Sequence record: OR352939.1
DNA length: 64,000 bases
Source: Escherichia phage AV109
Reading direction: 5' to 3' (one strand)
The position numbers and the translations under genes were made by a program. The notes beneath the pieces are model-generated. The model was not told the origin of the DNA, searched no databases, and was given only the letters and a program-made list of their open reading frames with translations. Below, one piece after another: positions 6,588 through 48,786 of the stretch (within the stretch, counting starts at the first letter, position 1; the number at the start of each line of letters is the position of its first letter).

Positions 6588-6823
6588 TGGACGATTTAAT
6601 TCAAGCTATTAAATCAAACGACCTCGTTGCTACTCGAAAGTTTTTTGAAAGTGCAATGGCAGAAAAAACGGTTCGTTTGATTGAAGCACGCAAAGCAGAA
6701 ATCGCTTCTCAATTTTTGATTGAAGGCGAAGAACCTGAAGAAGAAAAGAAAGCTAAAGCTTCGGAAGACGACGCTGATGAAGGCGATGACGACGAAGACG
6801 AAGATGATGAGGACGATGAATAA
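6587..6823 (+). CDS. 67: prohead core protein (T4 gp67-like), acidic C-terminus
   Basis: 78 aa with poly-Asp/Glu tail; position after gene 20. Confidence 0.75.
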
Positions 6824-7248
6824 TGTATCTTATCCCTGAATCTTATGAATTGGTACTCGAAAATGTCGAAGCACTTATTCCTGAAGCACAGGGCCGAATC
6901 GATGCATTGTCTTCTGCTCTCGATATTGACGATATAAATACTATTATCGAGAACATGCTTGAAACTGAAACGGATTTAGCTGTTGCAATGGCTTCCATTA
7001 TTAATGAAGAACAGTTAAATGAGTTTATCGTTAAACATGTTTCTTCTCGTGGTGAAGTCACTCGCACTAAAGACCGTAAAACTCGTGAACGTAACGCGTT
7101 CCAAACCACTGGTCTTTCTAAAGCAAAACGTAGACAAATCGCTCGTAAGGTCGTTAAAGCTAAAAAAGCTAACCCTTCAGGCCAAGTTAAAGGCTTGCGT
7201 AAGCGTAAAAAAGCTCTTAAACGTCGTAAAGCATTAGGATTAAGCTAA
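6823..7248 (+). CDS. 68: prohead core protein (T4 gp68-like)
   Basis: 141 aa, basic C-terminus, position between 67 and 21. Confidence 0.75.
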
Positions 7249-7889
7249 TGAATAAACCCGAGTTACTTATTGAAACTTGGGGTCAACCCGGTGAGATTAT
7301 TGATGGCGTTCCAATGTTGGAATCTCATGATGGAAAAGATTCTGGCTTAAAACCAGGGCTTTATATAGAAGGTATTTTTCTTCAGGCAGAGGTTGTTAAC
7401 CGAAATAAACGTTTATATCCTAAACGCGTTTTGGAAAAAGCAGTAAGTGACTATATTAAAGAACAAGTCGCAACCAAACAAGCCCTTGGAGAATTAAACC
7501 ATCCACCTCGTGCAAATGTTGACCCTATGCAAGCCGCTATCATTATTGAAGATATGTGGTGGAAAGGAAACGATGTATATGGACGTGCTAGAATTATTGA
7601 AGGCGACCATGGTCCCGGCGATAAATTAGCTGCTAATATACGAGCTGGTTGGATTCCAGGTGTTTCCTCTCGTGGTCTTGGTTCTTTAACCGACACCAAT
7701 AAAGGGTACCGTATCGTGAACGAAGGATTTAAATTAACCGTCGGTGTAGATGCCGTATGGGGACCTTCGGCTCCAGATGCTTGGGTTACTCCTAAACAAA
7801 TATCAGAATCAGAAAATTCGGTGGAAATCACCAAAAACAGTGCTGACGAAGCATTTAAAGCTCTCGCAGAGAGTTTAAAAGCATTATAA
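7248..7889 (+). CDS. 21: prohead core scaffold/protease (T4 gp21-like)
   Basis: 213 aa, T4 gene order. Confidence 0.92.
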   Translation: MNKPELLIETWGQPGEIIDGVPMLESHDGKDSGLKPGLYIEGIFLQAEVVNRNKRLYPKRVLEKAVSDYIKEQVATKQALGELNHPPRANVDPMQAAIIIEDMWWKGNDVYGRARIIEGDHGPGDKLAANIRAGWIPGVSSRGLGSLTDTNKGYRIVNEGFKLTVGVDAVWGPSAPDAWVTPKQISESENSVEITKNSADEAFKALAESLKAL

Positions 7890-33317: not shown

Positions 33318-33497
33318 TTATGCAACAACCTTTCCAAAACGAGAAGCATCATCTCGAAGAACTGCACGTGCTCTGCGCATGATCTTCTCAACGGTTTGAT
33401 TAATACGAGAGTTCGACCCACGCTTGTATCCAGCGCGTTTAGAGGTACCATCAACTTTCTTTTCAACTGCTTTCTTTGCTTTAGCTTGTTTTGCCAT
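33318..33497 (-). CDS. small basic protein (59 aa, Lys/Arg/Ala-rich)
   Basis: below ORF-track cutoff; AT-rich third codon positions, unlike the overlapping 61-aa track ORF in another frame; weak SD AAGAG. Confidence 0.4.
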   Translation of the reverse strand: MAKQAKAKKAVEKKVDGTSKRAGYKRGSNSRINQTVEKIMRRARAVLRDDASRFGKVVA

Positions 33498-34423: not shown

Positions 34424-34720
34424 TTACATAAGAAGCAAACGTTCTACCGGAGTACCATCAACCGAAATTACTTTATCAAGGCGGAAAGAACGCCACTGAC
34501 CTAACTCGGTATCGAATGCTCGAACTGATTCACGAGGTTCAGAACGAACTTCTGTTGATGGGTTACTATTTTCATATTTGACTTCAAGTTCGTCGCGGGA
34601 AGCAAACATCGTACGAACATCACCGTTAGCCTTTTCAAATACAACACAATGAACGCCTACAGACAGAATAGTTTTAATACATTCACGAAGAACCATAGTT
34701 TCTTGTTCAGTTAAAATCAT
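34424..34720 (-). CDS. hypothetical protein (31.1-like position)
   Basis: ORF track starts at a GTG at 34732; the ATG at 34720 overlaps the cd stop. Confidence 0.5.
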   Translation of the reverse strand: MILTEQETMVLRECIKTILSVGVHCVVFEKANGDVRTMFASRDELEVKYENSNPSTEVRSEPRESVRAFDTELGQWRSFRLDKVISVDGTPVERLLLM

Positions 34721-34721
34721 A

Positions 34722-35303
34722 TTATTCACCACAAAAGTTTCGAATTTGTTCCCAATTCAGAGAACGAAGATTATTACGAGAGTACTGAATTACTTCAATA
34801 CCGGCTTTTTTTAGAATGTCTGCCCAATTTTCAGGAGATCGGTCATATAATTCTGCATATACAACCTTTTTAATACCTGACTGTGTAATAGCTTTAGTGC
34901 AATCAGGACATGGAGAAAGCGTCGTATACAACGTAGCACCTTCAATAGAATTACCTTTACGAGCTGCAAACAAAATTGCATTCAATTCCGCATGGATTTC
35001 GTTATTAGCAGACCATGCACTATGAGCGGCCCGATGTTCTTTAGCCAAAACAAAATTATCCACCCGTCCAAATGCTGTAGTGCCTTCTTTATGCCCAGCA
35101 ACGATGACCGGGCTTGGTTTATTCTTCAACCAACCATTTTCGGATGCATGTTCGCAACAGTTTGTACCACCTGAAGGAGAGCCATTATAACCTGTAGAAA
35201 TAATGCGTCCATCTTTTTCAATGACGGCGCCAACTTTCCATGAACAACATTTTGATTCTTGAGAAATCAGATAAGCAATCTGAAGATATGTGCTAGCTTT
35301 CAT
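34722..35303 (-). CDS. cd: dCMP deaminase
   Basis: 193 aa; zinc-binding HAE...PCxxC motifs (EIHAELNAI, SPCPDCTKAI); same length as T4 Cd. Confidence 0.93.
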   Translation of the reverse strand: MKASTYLQIAYLISQESKCCSWKVGAVIEKDGRIISTGYNGSPSGGTNCCEHASENGWLKNKPSPVIVAGHKEGTTAFGRVDNFVLAKEHRAAHSAWSANNEIHAELNAILFAARKGNSIEGATLYTTLSPCPDCTKAITQSGIKKVVYAELYDRSPENWADILKKAGIEVIQYSRNNLRSLNWEQIRNFCGE

Positions 35304-36295
35304 TATTGAACCTTATTAATATAAGTTAACAGCTCTTTAGTTTGTTCCCAACTGATGCACGCATCGGTAATGGAAACGCCATAGGACATATTATCAGAAA
35401 TTTTTTGATTTCCTTCATGTAGGAATGATTCTATCATAATTCCTTTGACCAAATCATTAGCTGCTAAATTTTTACCAATACCAATTTGATTGCTATAATG
35501 CCCATCAGCGTTTGCATGGCTACAGTCAACCATTACATAATGATTCAGACCTACTGCCCTTGCTTTGTTAGAAGCTTCTTGAATATCAGAAGAATGATAG
35601 TTCGGGCCGTTAGTCCCGCCACGCAATACGATATGCGTATTCTGATTACCTTCAGCTTCAACAATGCCTACAGTACCATCGACGTCCATACCCATATACC
35701 GATGAGGCCGCGCGGCACTATACATCGCGTCTGTAGCTACTTTAATAGAACCATTGGTTGCGTTCTTGAAGCCTACGCACATCGGTAGACCTGAAGCAAT
35801 TTCACGATGTGTCTGACTTTCAGTCGTACGGGCGCCAATAGCAACCCATGAGAAAATACCAGAAAGATACTTAATCGTGAATGGGTCTAATACTTCAGTT
35901 GCTAATGGAAGTCCCATACGTAGAAGTTTACGACACAATGTTCGTGCAACTATAAGACCGTGGTTCATATCAAAACTTCCGTCAAGATATGGATCATTTA
36001 CAAGACCTTTCCAACCTACGGTAGTTCGAGGCTTTTCAAAATAAACGCGCATCACTAACAGAACATTAGGAAGACGAGTTTGAAGTTCAGCCAGACGTTT
36101 GCCGTATTCAACAGCAGCAATAGGGTCATGAATTGAACAAGGACCTACAACAATAAGTTTGCGTGGGTCTTCACCGTTCATAATCGAATTAACTTGTTCG
36201 CGATGAGAAGCCACTTGTGATGCGTAAGCTTCCGACAAAGGAATAATCTCAGCCAGTTCTTTTGGAGAAATAAGTTTTCTGACGACAGGTAACAT
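35303..36295 (-). CDS. class I 3-deoxy-D-arabino-heptulosonate-7-phosphate (DAHP) synthase, AroG/AroF/AroH family
   Basis: 330 aa; long stretches identical to recalled E. coli AroG (GPCSIHDP, RVYFEKPRTTVGWKG, AIGARTTESQ, LRGG, SHAN, ESxLxEGNQ, SITDACI); SD AAGGA; stop overlaps the cd start. Confidence 0.92.
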   Translation of the reverse strand: MLPVVRKLISPKELAEIIPLSEAYASQVASHREQVNSIMNGEDPRKLIVVGPCSIHDPIAAVEYGKRLAELQTRLPNVLLVMRVYFEKPRTTVGWKGLVNDPYLDGSFDMNHGLIVARTLCRKLLRMGLPLATEVLDPFTIKYLSGIFSWVAIGARTTESQTHREIASGLPMCVGFKNATNGSIKVATDAMYSAARPHRYMGMDVDGTVGIVEAEGNQNTHIVLRGGTNGPNYHSSDIQEASNKARAVGLNHYVMVDCSHANADGHYSNQIGIGKNLAANDLVKGIMIESFLHEGNQKISDNMSYGVSITDACISWEQTKELLTYINKVQ

Positions 36296-36415
36296 AACAA
36301 TCCTTAGGAGATATAAACAGATTCTGATTCAACAATACCTTTAACCGGATTAGACAGGCTAAGTTGGTAGTGCTCAGATTTATGACCATTCTCGATAGTA
36401 ATGAGATAGCTCTCA

Positions 36416-36652
36416 TTATAGTGTTCCATATACTCGAGTTGCTTCAACAAGACCATCACTGCCTAATTTAAGATTAGTAATTTGGTCACCATCTTTAGGA
36501 TTAACGATTATGAGAAAAGAACGTGGAGATTCTTGAATAACTCGTAATGTTGCATCCTGGAAACGTTCAGACACTTTATTGATGAGTGCTTGAGCAAATT
36601 CTTTTACTTTAATCTGAAATTCGTGTACTGTAATTGGATTTTCACTTAGCAT
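36416..36652 (-). CDS. hypothetical protein
   Basis: 78-aa ORF behind an early promoter and conserved leader ATGAGGAAATCGAA. Confidence 0.5.
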   Translation of the reverse strand: MLSENPITVHEFQIKVKEFAQALINKVSERFQDATLRVIQESPRSFLIIVNPKDGDQITNLKLGSDGLVEATRVYGTL

Positions 36653-36678: not shown

Positions 36679-36708
36679 ATCATAACACAACTCTACAGTG
36701 TTGTAAAC
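36679..36708 (-). promoter_or_regulatory. T4-type early promoter (-35 GTTTAC, extended -10 TGnTATGAT)
   Basis: repeat-family promoter upstream of the 78-aa gene and DAHP synthase. Confidence 0.5.
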
Positions 36709-36984
36709 TTAAATTGCAAAACATTTAATTTCTTGTGAATCGAAATCAACTTCACACTGAATTACTAGATCAGCATCAAGTCCAAACACAACAATCACAT
36801 GAGCCGAGCTGGGCAACAACGTAACAGACACAGAATCCACTTGGTCAGGCACTAGTGTATTCAAAACGTAGAGTAGTTCAGAGTGGACCTTAAGCTCAGT
36901 AGCCGTATCCAGCTTATCAAAGAAATGATTTGCGATAATCTGACTAAAAACTACCTTTACAATTTCAGAATATTTAGGGAACAT
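36709..36984 (-). CDS. hypothetical protein
   Basis: 91-aa ORF in the pseT-cd interval. Confidence 0.5.
   Translation of the reverse strand: MFPKYSEIVKVVFSQIIANHFFDKLDTATELKVHSELLYVLNTLVPDQVDSVSVTLLPSSAHVIVVFGLDADLVIQCEVDFDSQEIKCFAI

Positions 36985-37387: not shown

Positions 37388-37388
<1 letters not shown>
37197..37388 (-). CDS. hypothetical protein
   Basis: 63-aa ORF overlapping the pseT stop. Confidence 0.45.
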
Positions 37389-38474
<1,086 letters not shown>

Positions 38475-41858: not shown

Positions 41859-42361
41859 TTAGAAATATTTTTTGTATGAATTGATTACATTTTGGTCTAC
41901 ATCATTATCAATTTGTGCGACAAGATAAGAACTGATTTCAACTTCCTGAGGAGCTGCTTGAACTAAATCAGAGTTCAGATATTCACGAATCCAAGGATAA
42001 GGATGTTTGGTCGGAGCATCAGTAATTGGACACGGCAAACCACACTGTTTCATACGAGACACAGTCAAGTAATCAACAAAAGCACACATACTCTGTGTAT
42101 TGATACCTGGACATGTACCGTCTTTAAAGAGGTGTGCAGCCCATTCCTTCTCTTGACTATTTACTTCCATAAAAATGTCAACTGCTTCTTGTTCACATTC
42201 TTTAGCAATTTGAACCCACTCATCACCATCAGTACCGGATTGAAGTTGACGGATAATGTACTGAGTACCCTTGAGATGGAGTTGTTCGTCACGAGCAATG
42301 AACTTCATAATCTTTGCATTGCCTTCCATAATTTCCATATTCTTATGGAAATTAAATGTAC
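41859..42361 (-). CDS. nrdB: ribonucleotide reductase small subunit NrdB, exon 2
   Basis: continues the NrdB sequence (..MEGNAKI..) after the intron; 3' splice site inferred after ..CGAACAUAACG, approximate. Confidence 0.85.
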
Positions 42362-42953
42362 CGTTATGTTCGATTGAGCTCGCTAATTCTCAACCCGTTC
42401 TCTTATGAACTGCTGCATATTACTATGCAGACCAGACTATATCACAATCCCGGAGGGATTCTCCCCATTTCGAGTCGCTTGACCCTACGTCCGAAGACTA
42501 GTCGTTGAACCTTGCTTTGCAATTGTCGCCGTGCCATCGTTTATATGTCGATGGTGATAAATCTTTCTTTTCACAATATGGACAATTCAATTGAATTCTA
42601 TTTGGATTTAATTTGCATCTGTCATTATGTTTTAGATAAAACCCAGGACCTTTACCAATGTGACCGCAGAAATCACATGTGATTTCTTTTTGTGCAGGAT
42701 GGGTTCCGTTCTTAACCATTTCTAATGTTTTTGCTGATGTTCTTCCATCAGAATCTTTAGGTATAGGCCCGTTAGCATCCATCCAAATTTTTCTATAATT
42801 CAATTGTGCATCCTCTTAAAAGTATAATCATATTTATTTTATAATATACTAATTAAAGGTGCAAGCAAAACCTTGGCTGCTAGTTTTCCTATAAAGGACT
42901 TTCCAGCAATTAAAGGAGTTTTCGATAAACGTTACCGTTTAAAGGCGCATTTT
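42362..42953 (-). mobile_element. group I intron in nrdB (about 592 nt) with degenerate homing-endonuclease ORF
   Basis: NrdB reading frame interrupted by an in-frame stop right after ..YVSFA; intron core shares conserved segments with the td intron; splice sites inferred. Confidence 0.8.
42498..42803 (-). CDS. intron-encoded ORF, probable degenerate HNH homing endonuclease (I-TevIII-like remnant)
   Basis: 101 aa; N-terminal WMDANGPIPKD resembles HNH endonuclease starts but lacks an intact HNH motif; Cys-rich Zn-finger-like C-terminus. Confidence 0.55.
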   Translation of the reverse strand: MNYRKIWMDANGPIPKDSDGRTSAKTLEMVKNGTHPAQKEITCDFCGHIGKGPGFYLKHNDRCKLNPNRIQLNCPYCEKKDLSPSTYKRWHGDNCKARFND

Positions 42954-43629
42954 ACGCAAAAGATACATAAAAACGAATAGCTTCCAATGCATTGATGACA
43001 TGCAAACAAAGATAAAGAGATTTCATTAGGTCTCGTTTAGCTTCGGTCTCTTGTTTAATAGCTCGGTTTAAACGAAGGTCGGCATCAGGAGATTCTTTAG
43101 CTTGTTCTACAAATTCTTTAGCATTTTCCCAATTACGAGTCTTGACTAGAACATCATCATAATATTTACCTATTGATTCAGCTCGTTTCATGATTGCTTC
43201 GTCTAATACAATCTCATCAAATACTTTGGATGGATCGGTATAAAGATTTCGCATAATATGAGTATACGAACGAGAGTGAATAGTTTCACTGAATGTCCAT
43301 GTTGCAACCCACGTATCTAATGAAGGGTCGGAAAGCAGTGCCATAAGTACCGCAGATGGGGCCCTGCCTTGGATAGAATCTAATAATGATTGATACTTAA
43401 GGTTGTTTGTAAAGATGTCCTGTTGGAACTGAGGAAGCTTATTGAACTGGGCCGAATCCAGCATCAGGTTTACTTCTTCTGGTCGCCAGAAAAACGACAA
43501 TTGCTTTTCAATAAGTTCTTCAAAAACTTTATGTCGCTGAATATCATAACGTGCGAGGCCAAGACCAGAACCAAAGAACATTGGTTCATTCAAAACATCG
43601 ACTTGTTGTGTGTTAAAAACTGTACTCAT
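42954..43629 (-). CDS. nrdB: ribonucleotide reductase small subunit NrdB, exon 1
   Basis: 225 codons of NrdB-like sequence ending ..RFYVSFA before the intron. Confidence 0.9.
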
Positions 43630-46908: not shown

Positions 46909-46909
46909 T

Positions 46910-47221
46910 TTATACCGCCATTTTAGCTTTGATAGCTGGATGTGATTCGTAATTTTTAAGAACGAAATCAGAATGTGTCATCGTTCCGGTAACCCAGTCC
47001 ATTTGGATTTTTGTAGGCCAATTCTCAAAATTACTAGGCCAATTAATTTCAAGAGAACATAACTCTTTAGGTTCACGACGAAGAACTTCTTTGCATTGTT
47101 CTACATGATTGCTGTAGATATGCGTGTTGCCGCCTGAGAACACTAAATCACCTGGGATAAGGTTACACATCTTCGCTACAATATGTGTCAAGGCAGCGTA
47201 CGAGGCGATGTTGAACGGTAG
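46910..47221 (-). CDS. td: thymidylate synthase, exon 2
   Basis: LPFNIASYAAL.. continues the ThyA sequence; 3' splice site ..AUAAUG|CUA as in T4 td. Confidence 0.92.
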   Translation of the reverse strand, partial: LPFNIASYAALTHIVAKMCNLIPGDLVFSGGNTHIYSNHVEQCKEVLRREPKELCSLEINWPSNFENWPTKIQMDWVTGTMTHSDFVLKNYESHPAIKAKMAV

Positions 47222-48237
47222 CATTATGTTCAGATAAGGTCGTTAATCTTATCCCGGAATTATATCCAGCTGCATGTCACCATGCAGAGCAGACTATATC
47301 TCCAACTTGTTAAAGCAAGTTGTCTATCGTTTCGAGTCACTTGACCCTACTCCCTAAAGGGATAGTCGTTAGGCATTTATGTAGAACCAATTCCACTTAT
47401 CAGATTTTACACGGTAAGTAACTAATCCTGATGAAATTTCAAAATGTCTAGCCGCATCGGCTGCACATTCAAAAATAATCCCATCGCATGAAATCTTTTT
47501 GATGTTAGCTGGCTTTTTGCCTTTCATCTTTTCAGATAGTTTAGTTTTAGTTTTTTCTGAATGTTTGTGATTAAAGAACGGGTTATTTTCACCTGAACGT
47601 TTTCGGCACTTTCCACAAGTATCGGCCGAAGATGGTATGCGAACACCGCATTTACAAAACTTGTGGTTTTCTGGATTCCATCGGCCATTTTTACTTCCGT
47701 GTTTACCATAAAGAGCTTTCCGACCATCAGGACCAAGCTTAAGCATCTTAGCTTTAACAGTTTCAGCTCGTTTCTTAGCAATTTCTTCTTTTAATGGATG
47801 ATTTGAAAGCACATCGCCAAAAGACGCATCAGCAATATTATATCCATTAATTTTAGAATTTAGCTCTTTAATCCAAAAATTTTCTCGTTCAATAATCAAA
47901 TCTTTCTCATATGGAATTTCTTCCAGTATAGAGCATTCAAAAACATTACCATGTTTATTAAAAGACCTTTGAAATTTTATAGAAGAGTGAACACCGTTTT
48001 CAAGGTCTTTAAAATGTCTCTTCCATCTTTTCTCAAAATCTTTAGCACTTCCAACATACACTTTACCGTTTAAAGTGTTTTTAATCTGATAAATTCCGCT
48101 TTTCATAAACACCTCTTTTTATATAGAAGTATTTATTAAAGGGTAGTCCTACAATTTAGCACGGGATTGTCTACTAGAGAGGTCCCCCGTTTAGATAGAT
48201 TACAAGTATAAGTCACCTTATACCTAGGCCTAAATTA
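47222..48237 (-). mobile_element. group I intron in td (1016 nt) carrying I-TevI
   Basis: 5' end UAAUUUAGGCCUAGGUAUAAGGUGACUUAUACUUGUAAUCUAUCUAAACGGGG matches the recalled T4 td intron; length 1016 as in T4. Confidence 0.92.
47369..48106 (-). CDS. I-TevI: GIY-YIG homing endonuclease I-TevI (intron-encoded)
   Basis: 245 aa from the ATG at 48106 (track starts at an upstream GTG); near-identical to recalled T4 I-TevI. Confidence 0.93.
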   Translation of the reverse strand: MKSGIYQIKNTLNGKVYVGSAKDFEKRWKRHFKDLENGVHSSIKFQRSFNKHGNVFECSILEEIPYEKDLIIERENFWIKELNSKINGYNIADASFGDVLSNHPLKEEIAKKRAETVKAKMLKLGPDGRKALYGKHGSKNGRWNPENHKFCKCGVRIPSSADTCGKCRKRSGENNPFFNHKHSEKTKTKLSEKMKGKKPANIKKISCDGIIFECAADAARHFEISSGLVTYRVKSDKWNWFYINA

Positions 48238-48786
48238 ACCTAAGAAAACATCTACACTGCGTTGATACCATTGTAAATCAAGATGTCCATTACGCACATT
48301 AAATTGATAGAACATATGACAAGGAGGAAGAGCCATTTGATTTATTTCAGCCGGATTCCAGGCAGAAACAATTTGACGACGATCAGTTGGTAATTTTTTA
48401 ATACGGTCGATTGTTTCAACTAATTGGTCTACACCACCAAAATCACGCCATTGCTTACCATAAATAGGACCAAGTTCGCCGCTATGATATCCAAGGTCTT
48501 TTGCCTGATTTTCATAGTTGTCGTCCCAAATAGTTTTACCTTGAATAAGACTACCATGAGTACGAATACGCAAATCATTAACATTTGTAGAGCCAGACAT
48601 GAACCATAATAGCTCAGCAATACAAGCTTTCCATGCAAGCTTCTTGGTTGTTACTGCAGGAAATCCTTTAGTCAGATCCCATCGCAATTTAGTTCCGAAC
48701 AGGGCAATAGTGCCGGTACCTGTACGGTCGTCTGTTTCGTAGCCATTTTCTAGGATATCATTAATCAGGTATTGGTATTGTTTCAT
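48238..48786 (-). CDS. td: thymidylate synthase, exon 1
   Basis: 183 codons ending ..QRSVDVFLG immediately before the intron UAA. Confidence 0.93.

Follow-up and report, generated by a model that had tools for sequence, protein, structure and literature searches.

DAHP synthase (DAHP being the 7-phosphate of 3-deoxy-D-arabino-heptulosonate), the entry enzyme of the shikimate pathway and represented in E. coli by AroF, AroG, and AroH, is also annotated in T4-like phages, and we describe here the gene for it on the minus strand of a 64,000-nucleotide stretch (the window) of Escherichia phage AV109 (OR352939.1). It matches, at 100% identity, Escherichia phage AV114 (OR352944.1), a Mosigvirus (Straboviridae, Tevenvirinae) from pig waste in Denmark, in whose record the gene is already annotated (WPK34950.1). 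The family of the gene product is PHROG 5045, the 'phospho-2-dehydro-3-deoxyheptonate aldolase' of Mosigvirus and related Straboviridae, with phages PhAPEC2, JS09, Shf125875, phiC120, PEi20/26, X20, F48, and PM2 named among its carriers, and we found nothing substantive in which the AV114 enzyme differs from it. The match to the PHROGs v4 profile has a score of 604 bits (E = 9.4e-182) and pairs residues 1-330 with profile positions 8-337 of 341. The PHROGs category of the family is 'moron, auxiliary metabolic gene and host takeover'. The suggested auxiliary metabolic genes (AMGs) with function unknown that are listed in Olsen et al. 2020 (bioRxiv 10.1101/2020.01.19.911818) include the Mosigvirus DAHP synthase, and the phiC120 genome paper mentions the DAHP synthase domain (PMC8022965). 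Several GenBank records label the phage gene 'aroF, Tyr-sensitive'. A full-text literature search returned passing mentions only and no biochemical or genetic study of any enzyme of the phage clade.

For the cellular enzymes, substitutions that confer feedback resistance are reported. AroG becomes feedback-resistant through P150L, S180F, or F209A/S; Q151/Q152 and S180/S181 bind the main chain of the inhibitor, and D155 forms a stabilising salt bridge (PMC9529685). The feedback-resistant alleles listed for yeast include ARO4 Q166K (PMC5879953, Box 1).

As a gene call alone, the phage gene is of low importance, being a correctly annotated and widespread AMG. A preliminary description of the window, made by a model from the letters alone, had implied that the gene was novel, and that part does not stand, given the annotation in OR352944.1, the 212 phage records with homologues, PHROG 5045, and Olsen et al. 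2020. The same description had allowed that the gene might turn out to be both common and characterised in T4-like phages; common it is, whereas no functional study of it was found. The gene is thus already known as an annotation, and the new point, unreported as far as we found, is that its inhibitor pocket has been rewired.

Catalytic core and inhibitor pocket

The gene and the segments of it discussed here lie as follows.

35303-36295, minus strand: DAHP synthase coding sequence (330 aa, type I-alpha; WPK34950.1 in AV114), from the open reading frame (ORF), Pfam, NCBIfam, PDB, and PHROG matches, and a structure model
36301-36305, minus strand: Shine-Dalgarno AAGGA, 5 nt upstream of the ATG, read from the sequence
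35301-35305, minus strand: TAATG junction at which the synthase stop overlaps the cd start (translational coupling), from the sequence
35858-35887, minus strand: remodelled inhibitor-pocket loop, residues 137-146 (DPFTIKYLSG), where I141 = AroG P150, K142 = Q151, and G146 = D155
35783-35785, minus strand: codon of P171 = AroG S180, an inhibitor-contacting position
35654-35698, minus strand: beta6a/6b hairpin, residues 200-214, where Y200 = AroG F209, G202 = S211/AroF G212, and A214 = T223

The ORF stands at exactly the coordinates that the preliminary description had assigned to it, with its ATG at 36295-36293, and two further details of that description were found in the sequence, namely the gene's own AAGGA and the overlap of its stop, as TAATG, with the start of cd, the gene for deoxycytidine monophosphate (dCMP) deaminase. 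The AAGGA overlaps the stop codon of an upstream 41-aa ORF. Because an in-frame TGA is present at 36331-36329 and neither ATG, GTG, nor TTG occurs between it and the start of the gene, a longer N-terminus is impossible.

Database searches upheld the identification of the product as a class I DAHP synthase. The search against Pfam DAHP_synth_1 (PF00793) that had been proposed was run and gave E = 1.3e-75 and 254 bits (cutoff 25.5), a similarity far above chance. The NCBIfam aroFGH equivalog TIGR00034 was passed with 429.7 bits (cutoff 173.2) and the subfamily model NF009395 with 457.6 bits (cutoff 343), whereas neither the AroG-specific NF006723 (365 vs cutoff 568) nor the AroH-specific NF009396 (387.8 vs cutoff 463) was reached. 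The best solved relative, per a PDB sequence search, is the E. coli AroF structure 6AGM (E = 2e-105). Among the motifs that the preliminary description had quoted, GPCSIHDP, RVYFEKPRTTVGWKG, AIGARTTESQTHREIASGL, CSHAN, ESFLHEGNQ, and SITDACISW are present, while the one given as ILRGG actually reads VLRGG. The Cys/His/Glu/Asp metal ligands are all in place, as it had said, at C53, H260, E289, and D311 (AroG Cys61, His268, Glu302, and Asp326), and are invariant in all phage homologues examined. Alignment with AroF, AroG, and AroH finds the residues that bind phosphoenolpyruvate (PEP) and erythrose-4-phosphate (E4P) kept as well, at R83, K88-P-R-T91, G154-A-R156, K177, and R225, which correspond to AroG R92, K97-P-R-T100, G163-A-R165, K186, and R234.

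An AlphaFold model built on an alignment of 48 homologues has a predicted local distance difference test (pLDDT) score of 90.5 and a predicted template-modelling (pTM) score of 0.90. Per Foldseek, it superposes on crystal structures of the N. meningitidis and E. coli DAHP synthases with a template-modelling (TM) score of 0.96 and a root-mean-square deviation of 1.4 A, and it contains the (beta/alpha)8 barrel and the beta6a/6b regulatory hairpin, the region of which is ungapped in the alignment. The identity of the product as a 3-deoxy-D-manno-octulosonate 8-phosphate (KDO8P) synthase, KdsA, was excluded by the NCBIfam matches, which are to DAHP synthase models only, and by the presence of the Cys metal ligand and of the KPRT motif. 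Judged by sequence and predicted fold, the product is a type I-alpha DAHP synthase whose active site is intact, and it should be catalytically competent in condensing PEP and E4P to DAHP.

The inhibitor pocket is where the phage enzymes part from the bacterial ones. We aligned 30 phage-clade sequences with 98 bacterial type I-alpha sequences, including AroF, AroG, and AroH, and counted a column as switched if it was at least 90% conserved in the bacteria and held a different residue, at least 90% conserved, in the phages. Six of the 122 columns conserved to this degree in bacteria are switched in the phage clade, in AroG numbering P150 (now I), Q151 (K), D155 (G), S180 (P), F209 (Y), and T223 (A). 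The nine published pocket or feedback-resistance positions of the conserved set include five of these six (hypergeometric p = 3.5e-6): at P150, Q151, D155, S180, and F209, where conservation in the bacteria is 91-100%, 29-30 of the 30 phage sequences carry I, K, G, P, and Y. The sixth, T223, is two residues away from V221, at which the change V221A gives feedback resistance. By ungapped mapping, K142 of the phage enzyme is equivalent to AroG Q151, AroF Q152, and yeast Aro4 Q166.

The N-terminus is altered too. All 30 phage sequences have 8-12 residues before the column of AroG P19, against at least 16 in all 98 bacterial ones, and the phage enzyme is without a segment equivalent to AroG 1-9 or AroF 1-10. 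In the AroG-Phe structure this N-terminal arm reportedly helps to close the inhibitor site of the neighbouring subunit, and Shumilin in 2002 and Jossek in 2001 are reported to have given the arm a part in inhibitor binding, the positions concerned being Asp6 and Asp7 of AroG and the N8K change of AroF. Taking the six pocket switches together with the short N-terminus, we infer that the phage DAHP synthase is probably insensitive to feedback by Tyr, Phe, and Trp, with catalysis preserved. The prediction of Tyr/Phe/Trp insensitivity is a sharp one, its ground being that the very residues that protein engineers mutate are changed in the phage enzyme.

Descent, distribution, and selection

The preliminary description had called the gene host-like, which is an overstatement. 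The product shares 50% identity with AroF, 47% with AroG, and 44% with AroH, bacterial sequences are all at most 53% identical to it, and neighbour joining of 45 bacterial and 30 phage-clade sequences kept the phage clade separate in 100/100 bootstraps; because of these identities to the host isozymes and this phage-only clade, we do not regard the gene as a recent host copy. The nearest bacterial-type homologue (P0024) is located among bacterial housekeeping genes. With a GC content of 41% and a GC content at third codon positions (GC3) of 29%, against GC3 values of 25-33% in the neighbours cd and pseT and 50-57% in E. coli aroF, aroG, and aroH, the codon composition of the gene is fully ameliorated and phage-like, which agrees with the earlier remark that it is AT-rich with phage-like codon usage. 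Recent capture from a host was rejected because the product is 50% identical to AroF and falls in a phage-only clade at 100/100, because GC3 is ameliorated, and because the context of P0024 is bacterial. The view that the gene is no recent, unadapted insertion held up as well, as it is integrated in the cd operon and translationally coupled there.

Full-length homologues were found by tblastn in 212 phage records, 139 of which are at least 95% identical (Mosigvirus; 98-100% to the ORF). Another 47, in T4-like phages of Klebsiella, Serratia, Edwardsiella, Enterobacter, and Erwinia, are 60-80% identical, Proteus phages stand at about 58% identity, and a few records lie farther off. Going by record counts, the gene appears to be missing from about 12 of some 151 Mosigvirus records.

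Between genera, pairwise identities of the synthase track those of cd, pseT, and gp31, with the phage genera 56-77% identical overall, and the ratio of nonsynonymous to synonymous substitution rates (dN/dS) is 0.15-0.25. Within Mosigvirus, dN/dS scatters from 0.2 to 2.1 on only 8-12 substitutions per pair, and selection was judged on the between-genus pairs instead. By these sequence comparisons the gene has long resided in this group of phages under selection and was not newly copied from a host.

Compared with three other Mosigvirus genomes, the AV114 synthase has two private substitutions, W196R (codon 35708-35710) and V309I (codon 35369-35371); position 196 is F or Y in other genera.

Role in infection and rival readings

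We favour, at a rough probability of 0.55, the reading that the gene is a feedback-blind, catalytically competent phage AMG that is transcribed early and would sustain shikimate entry during infection. The gene would be transcribed early, from a promoter of the T4 early type that also serves cd.2 and cd, and the enzyme would condense PEP and E4P into DAHP; the rebuilt allosteric pocket and the shortened N-terminal arm would let it escape shut-off by Tyr, Phe, and Trp, and carbon flow into the shikimate pathway would be maintained while the host's AroF, AroG, and AroH are feedback-inhibited. The onward route would lead through chorismate to aromatic amino acids, para-aminobenzoate (pABA) and folate, and quinones. 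In its most economical form, this reading suggests that once host expression stops, a sustained entry flux into the shikimate pathway would serve aromatic amino acids, pABA-folate, or both. That folate is the product that counts would be a guess, one that fits the neighbours cd, td, frd, and nrd; the presence of frd and td in the same window, mentioned in the preliminary description, was confirmed, and nrdA and nrdB are there too. No other shikimate-pathway genes are annotated in the inspected 28-113 kb of AV114.

The early promoter that this reading calls for has a candidate upstream of the gene.

36679-36707, minus strand: sigma-70-type early promoter, TTTACA-17-TATGAT with extended TG, between cd.3 and cd.2, from a promoter scan and T4 homology

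The site aligns with an annotated T4 early promoter (Pe133295) located between cd.2 and cd.3 and is kept in RB69 and ZQ3, and no terminator-like site was found between it and the synthase gene. The gene is likely to be co-transcribed early with cd.2 and cd.

Several observations weigh against the favoured reading. The region contains 17 promoter-like sites, compared with 21 in shuffled sequence, so there is no enrichment; because scan hits do not rise above shuffled sequence, the promoter call rests on T4 homology, and the generic scan was not used beyond the T4-homologous site. RB69 and T4 grow well without the gene, making it dispensable at least in the laboratory. The AroF-type pocket residues D137, P138, L170, and the Tyr-type G202 are retained and the beta6a/6b hairpin is intact. 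Lastly, the pocket has an entropy of 0.37 bits across the phage sequences, against 1.01 bits for the whole protein, and so strongly conserved a pocket is unlike an abandoned site, such that a new ligand or a structural role is possible. Framed more broadly, we give about even chances to the proposal that T4-like phages of Enterobacterales have a naturally evolved lineage with a rebuilt and frozen pocket, acting either as a feedback-blind gate or as a sensor of an infection-linked effector, by which the phage would control its aromatic or folate precursor supply.

The favoured reading, if true, would add the supply of amino-acid and cofactor precursors to the host pathways reprogrammed by T4-like phages, and the lineage would be a natural feedback-resistant DAHP synthase scaffold for metabolic engineering. 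A near-isogenic natural comparison is at hand, most Mosigvirus having the gene and RB69 being without it.

Next in order, though unlikely in our estimation, is an ordinary Tyr-regulated, AroF-like isozyme that adds DAHP synthase capacity after the shut-off of host transcription. AroF is indeed the best PDB and sequence match, the NF009395 score is well over its cutoff, G202 (AroF G212), P138 (AroF P148), and the regulatory hairpin are kept, and the pocket is under strong constraint. A Tyr-regulated enzyme would nevertheless have to be reconciled with the fact that AroF Q152, S181, F210, and P151, which are invariant or nearly so in the 98 bacterial enzymes, have in 29-30 of the 30 phage ones given way to K, P, Y, and I, when it is these positions that contact the inhibitor or confer feedback resistance when mutated. 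The N-terminal arm, about 9 residues shorter in the phage enzyme, counts against it as well.

Slightly less probable again is that the rebuilt pocket has become a new allosteric site for some other effector, either a pathway intermediate or an infection-specific metabolite, which would make the enzyme re-regulated and not de-regulated. The near invariance of the six switched residues and their neighbours across genera that are 56-77% identical, reflected in the low pocket entropy given above, is what would be said for such a site, along with the retention of the hairpin and pocket scaffold in the AlphaFold model. However, there is no candidate ligand, the conservation could equally reflect locking of the active conformation, and the pocket loops are coupled to the active site and hence constrained anyway.

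We see very little chance that the benefit lies in the consumption of PEP and E4P as such, through a re-routing of central or pentose-phosphate carbon possibly tied to the arabinosyl-hydroxymethylcytosine (ara-hmC) pathway of Mosigvirus. The gene does sit in a nucleotide-metabolism operon, AV114 carries an arabinose-5-phosphate isomerase cluster, and many of the genera with the synthase have the isomerase. Yet RB69 makes ara-hmC (PMC6024577) and has the isomerase but not the synthase, and among Acinetobacter phages 57 isomerase records stand against 4 in the synthase search, the one Acinetobacter synthase inspected being distant (47% identical) and outside the phage clade. Klebsiella phages depart in the opposite direction, with 25 records that have the synthase and at most 3 that have the isomerase, i.e., at least 22 with the former and without the latter. 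The ara-hmC and modification papers examined make no mention of DAHP synthase, and a drain on E4P would, by pathway stoichiometry, lower the pentose yield. With the distributions of isomerase (261 records) and synthase (212 records) decoupled, the specific link to arabinosyl-hmC was rejected.

AV114 itself has, at 97.4-104.0 kb (L020 33428-39977, outside the window), an RB69-like cluster between uvsX and gene 43 that includes D-arabinose-5-phosphate isomerase, and because of this cluster its DNA probably carries arabinosyl-hmC.

The least credible reading, a functionless passenger or decaying cassette spread by recombination among T4-like phages, can draw on the variable presence of the gene within Mosigvirus (RB69 being without it), on the recombination scar alongside, and on a few within-genus dN/dS values near or above 1 that come from just 8-12 substitutions, but it is opposed by a full-length ORF intact in 212 records, catalytic residues that are all invariant, the between-genus dN/dS of 0.15-0.25, the ameliorated codon composition, and the translational coupling to cd.

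Locus layout and comparison with known systems

The neighbourhood of the gene comprises the following features.

34722-35303, minus strand: cd (dCMP deaminase), the downstream coupled gene, from Pfam PF00383 (E = 1.7e-26) and annotation
35307-36406, minus strand: 1.1-kb segment (cd.2' remnant and DAHP synthase gene), present in AV114 and not in RB69, from blastn block boundaries
36304-36429, minus strand: 41-aa ORF, putative remnant of the C-terminal half of a foreign cd.2, from PHROG 1504 positions 44-76
36416-36652, minus strand: cd.2 homologue (DUF7320), first gene of the early transcription unit, from Pfam and PHROG 1504
37388-38287, minus strand: pseT (polynucleotide kinase/phosphatase), upstream boundary of the block from pseT to the synthase gene and cd, from Pfam PF25109 and PF13671 and synteny

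The survey of T4-like genomes between cd and pseT that had been proposed was run, and the synthase gene recurs there in five genera. The order pseT, small ORFs, synthase gene, and cd is found in Mosigvirus, Marfavirus F48, Winklervirus X20, Kanagawavirus PEi26 and Entb_45, and Bragavirus PM2, and also in a deep-branching metagenomic T4-like contig (P0020), the synthase of which is 57% identical. T4 has only cd.1-cd.5 between cd and pseT, just as the preliminary description had said in speaking of small cd.x ORFs, and cd.1 occupies the slot of the synthase gene. In RB69, the type Mosigvirus, cd.2 abuts cd and there is no synthase gene.

The 41-aa ORF, labelled 'hypothetical protein', is 44-51% identical to cd.2 of PEi26, Entb45, and F48 (Kanagawavirus/Marfavirus) and 26% identical to cd.2 of AV114, and the DNA at it reads as a donor-type '...TCTGTTTAT...TAAGG...ATGTTACC' junction into the synthase gene. 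The counterpart site in RB69 is at 7243-7255, and the 1.1-kb indel is bounded by TATAATGA stop/start coupling junctions. The 41-aa ORF would then be the scar of a phage-to-phage transfer that brought a cassette of cd.2' and the synthase gene into an RB69-like cd.2/cd junction, although RB69 may alternatively have lost the gene by deletion.

Elsewhere in the block, cd.3 (36709-36984) and the 3' part of pseT (37392-37795) share only about 70-76% nucleotide identity with phages ZQ3, a20, and APCEc01, whereas the adjacent cd.2, synthase gene, and gene 31 share 97-100% with the same phages, and because of this difference we describe the cd-pseT block as mosaic on a fine scale. The RB69 cd gene (6743-7252) is annotated about 24 aa shorter than those of AV114 and T4; close to the 3' end its reading frame changes within a stretch of A (ADILKPSWY* vs ADILKKAGIEV...), by either a frameshift or a sequencing error. 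Further along the window, nrdB (~41859-43629) and td (~46909-48785) are each annotated as two coding pieces around a homing-endonuclease gene, which suggests that introns and homing endonucleases have inserted here as in T4; scanning 33-44 kb with Rfam yielded no group I intron, with nothing at the gathering threshold. Three labels in the GenBank record are likely misannotations, those of a 59-aa gp30.9-like ORF (33318-33497) as '1,4-alpha-glucan branching enzyme', of a gp31.1 homologue (34424-34720) as 'tail fibers protein', and of a 59-aa ORF of AV114 (L020, 23392-23571) as 'molybdenum ABC transporter'.

One of the known systems compared is KdsA, the other branch of PF00793, which belongs to the same superfamily and has the same PEP-aldol chemistry. 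Unlike KdsA, the phage enzyme passes TIGR00034, has the Cys metal ligand, and has a KPRT motif aligned with AroG K97-T100. With AroF, AroG, and AroH it has in common the family, the fold, the metal ligands, and the PEP/E4P residues, at the identities of 50, 47, and 44% already given, and it retains the Tyr-type Gly of the beta6a strand of AroF (AroF structures PDB 6AGM/6AGL). It differs from the three in being about 20-26 residues shorter, with an N-terminal arm cut back by about 9 residues and, toward the C-terminus, two small loop deletions, and its GC3 is 29% where that of AroF is 50%. For the pocket, the comparators are the engineered or selected feedback-resistant alleles AroG P150L, S180F, F209A/S, and D146N, AroF P148L, and ARO4 Q166K and K229L. 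The phage clade is naturally substituted at the same positions as several of these, P150, Q151, S180, and F209, and its Q-to-K change is identical to ARO4 Q166K. Unlike those alleles, the phage enzyme has six changes together with a truncated N-terminus, a combination that has become fixed in evolution.

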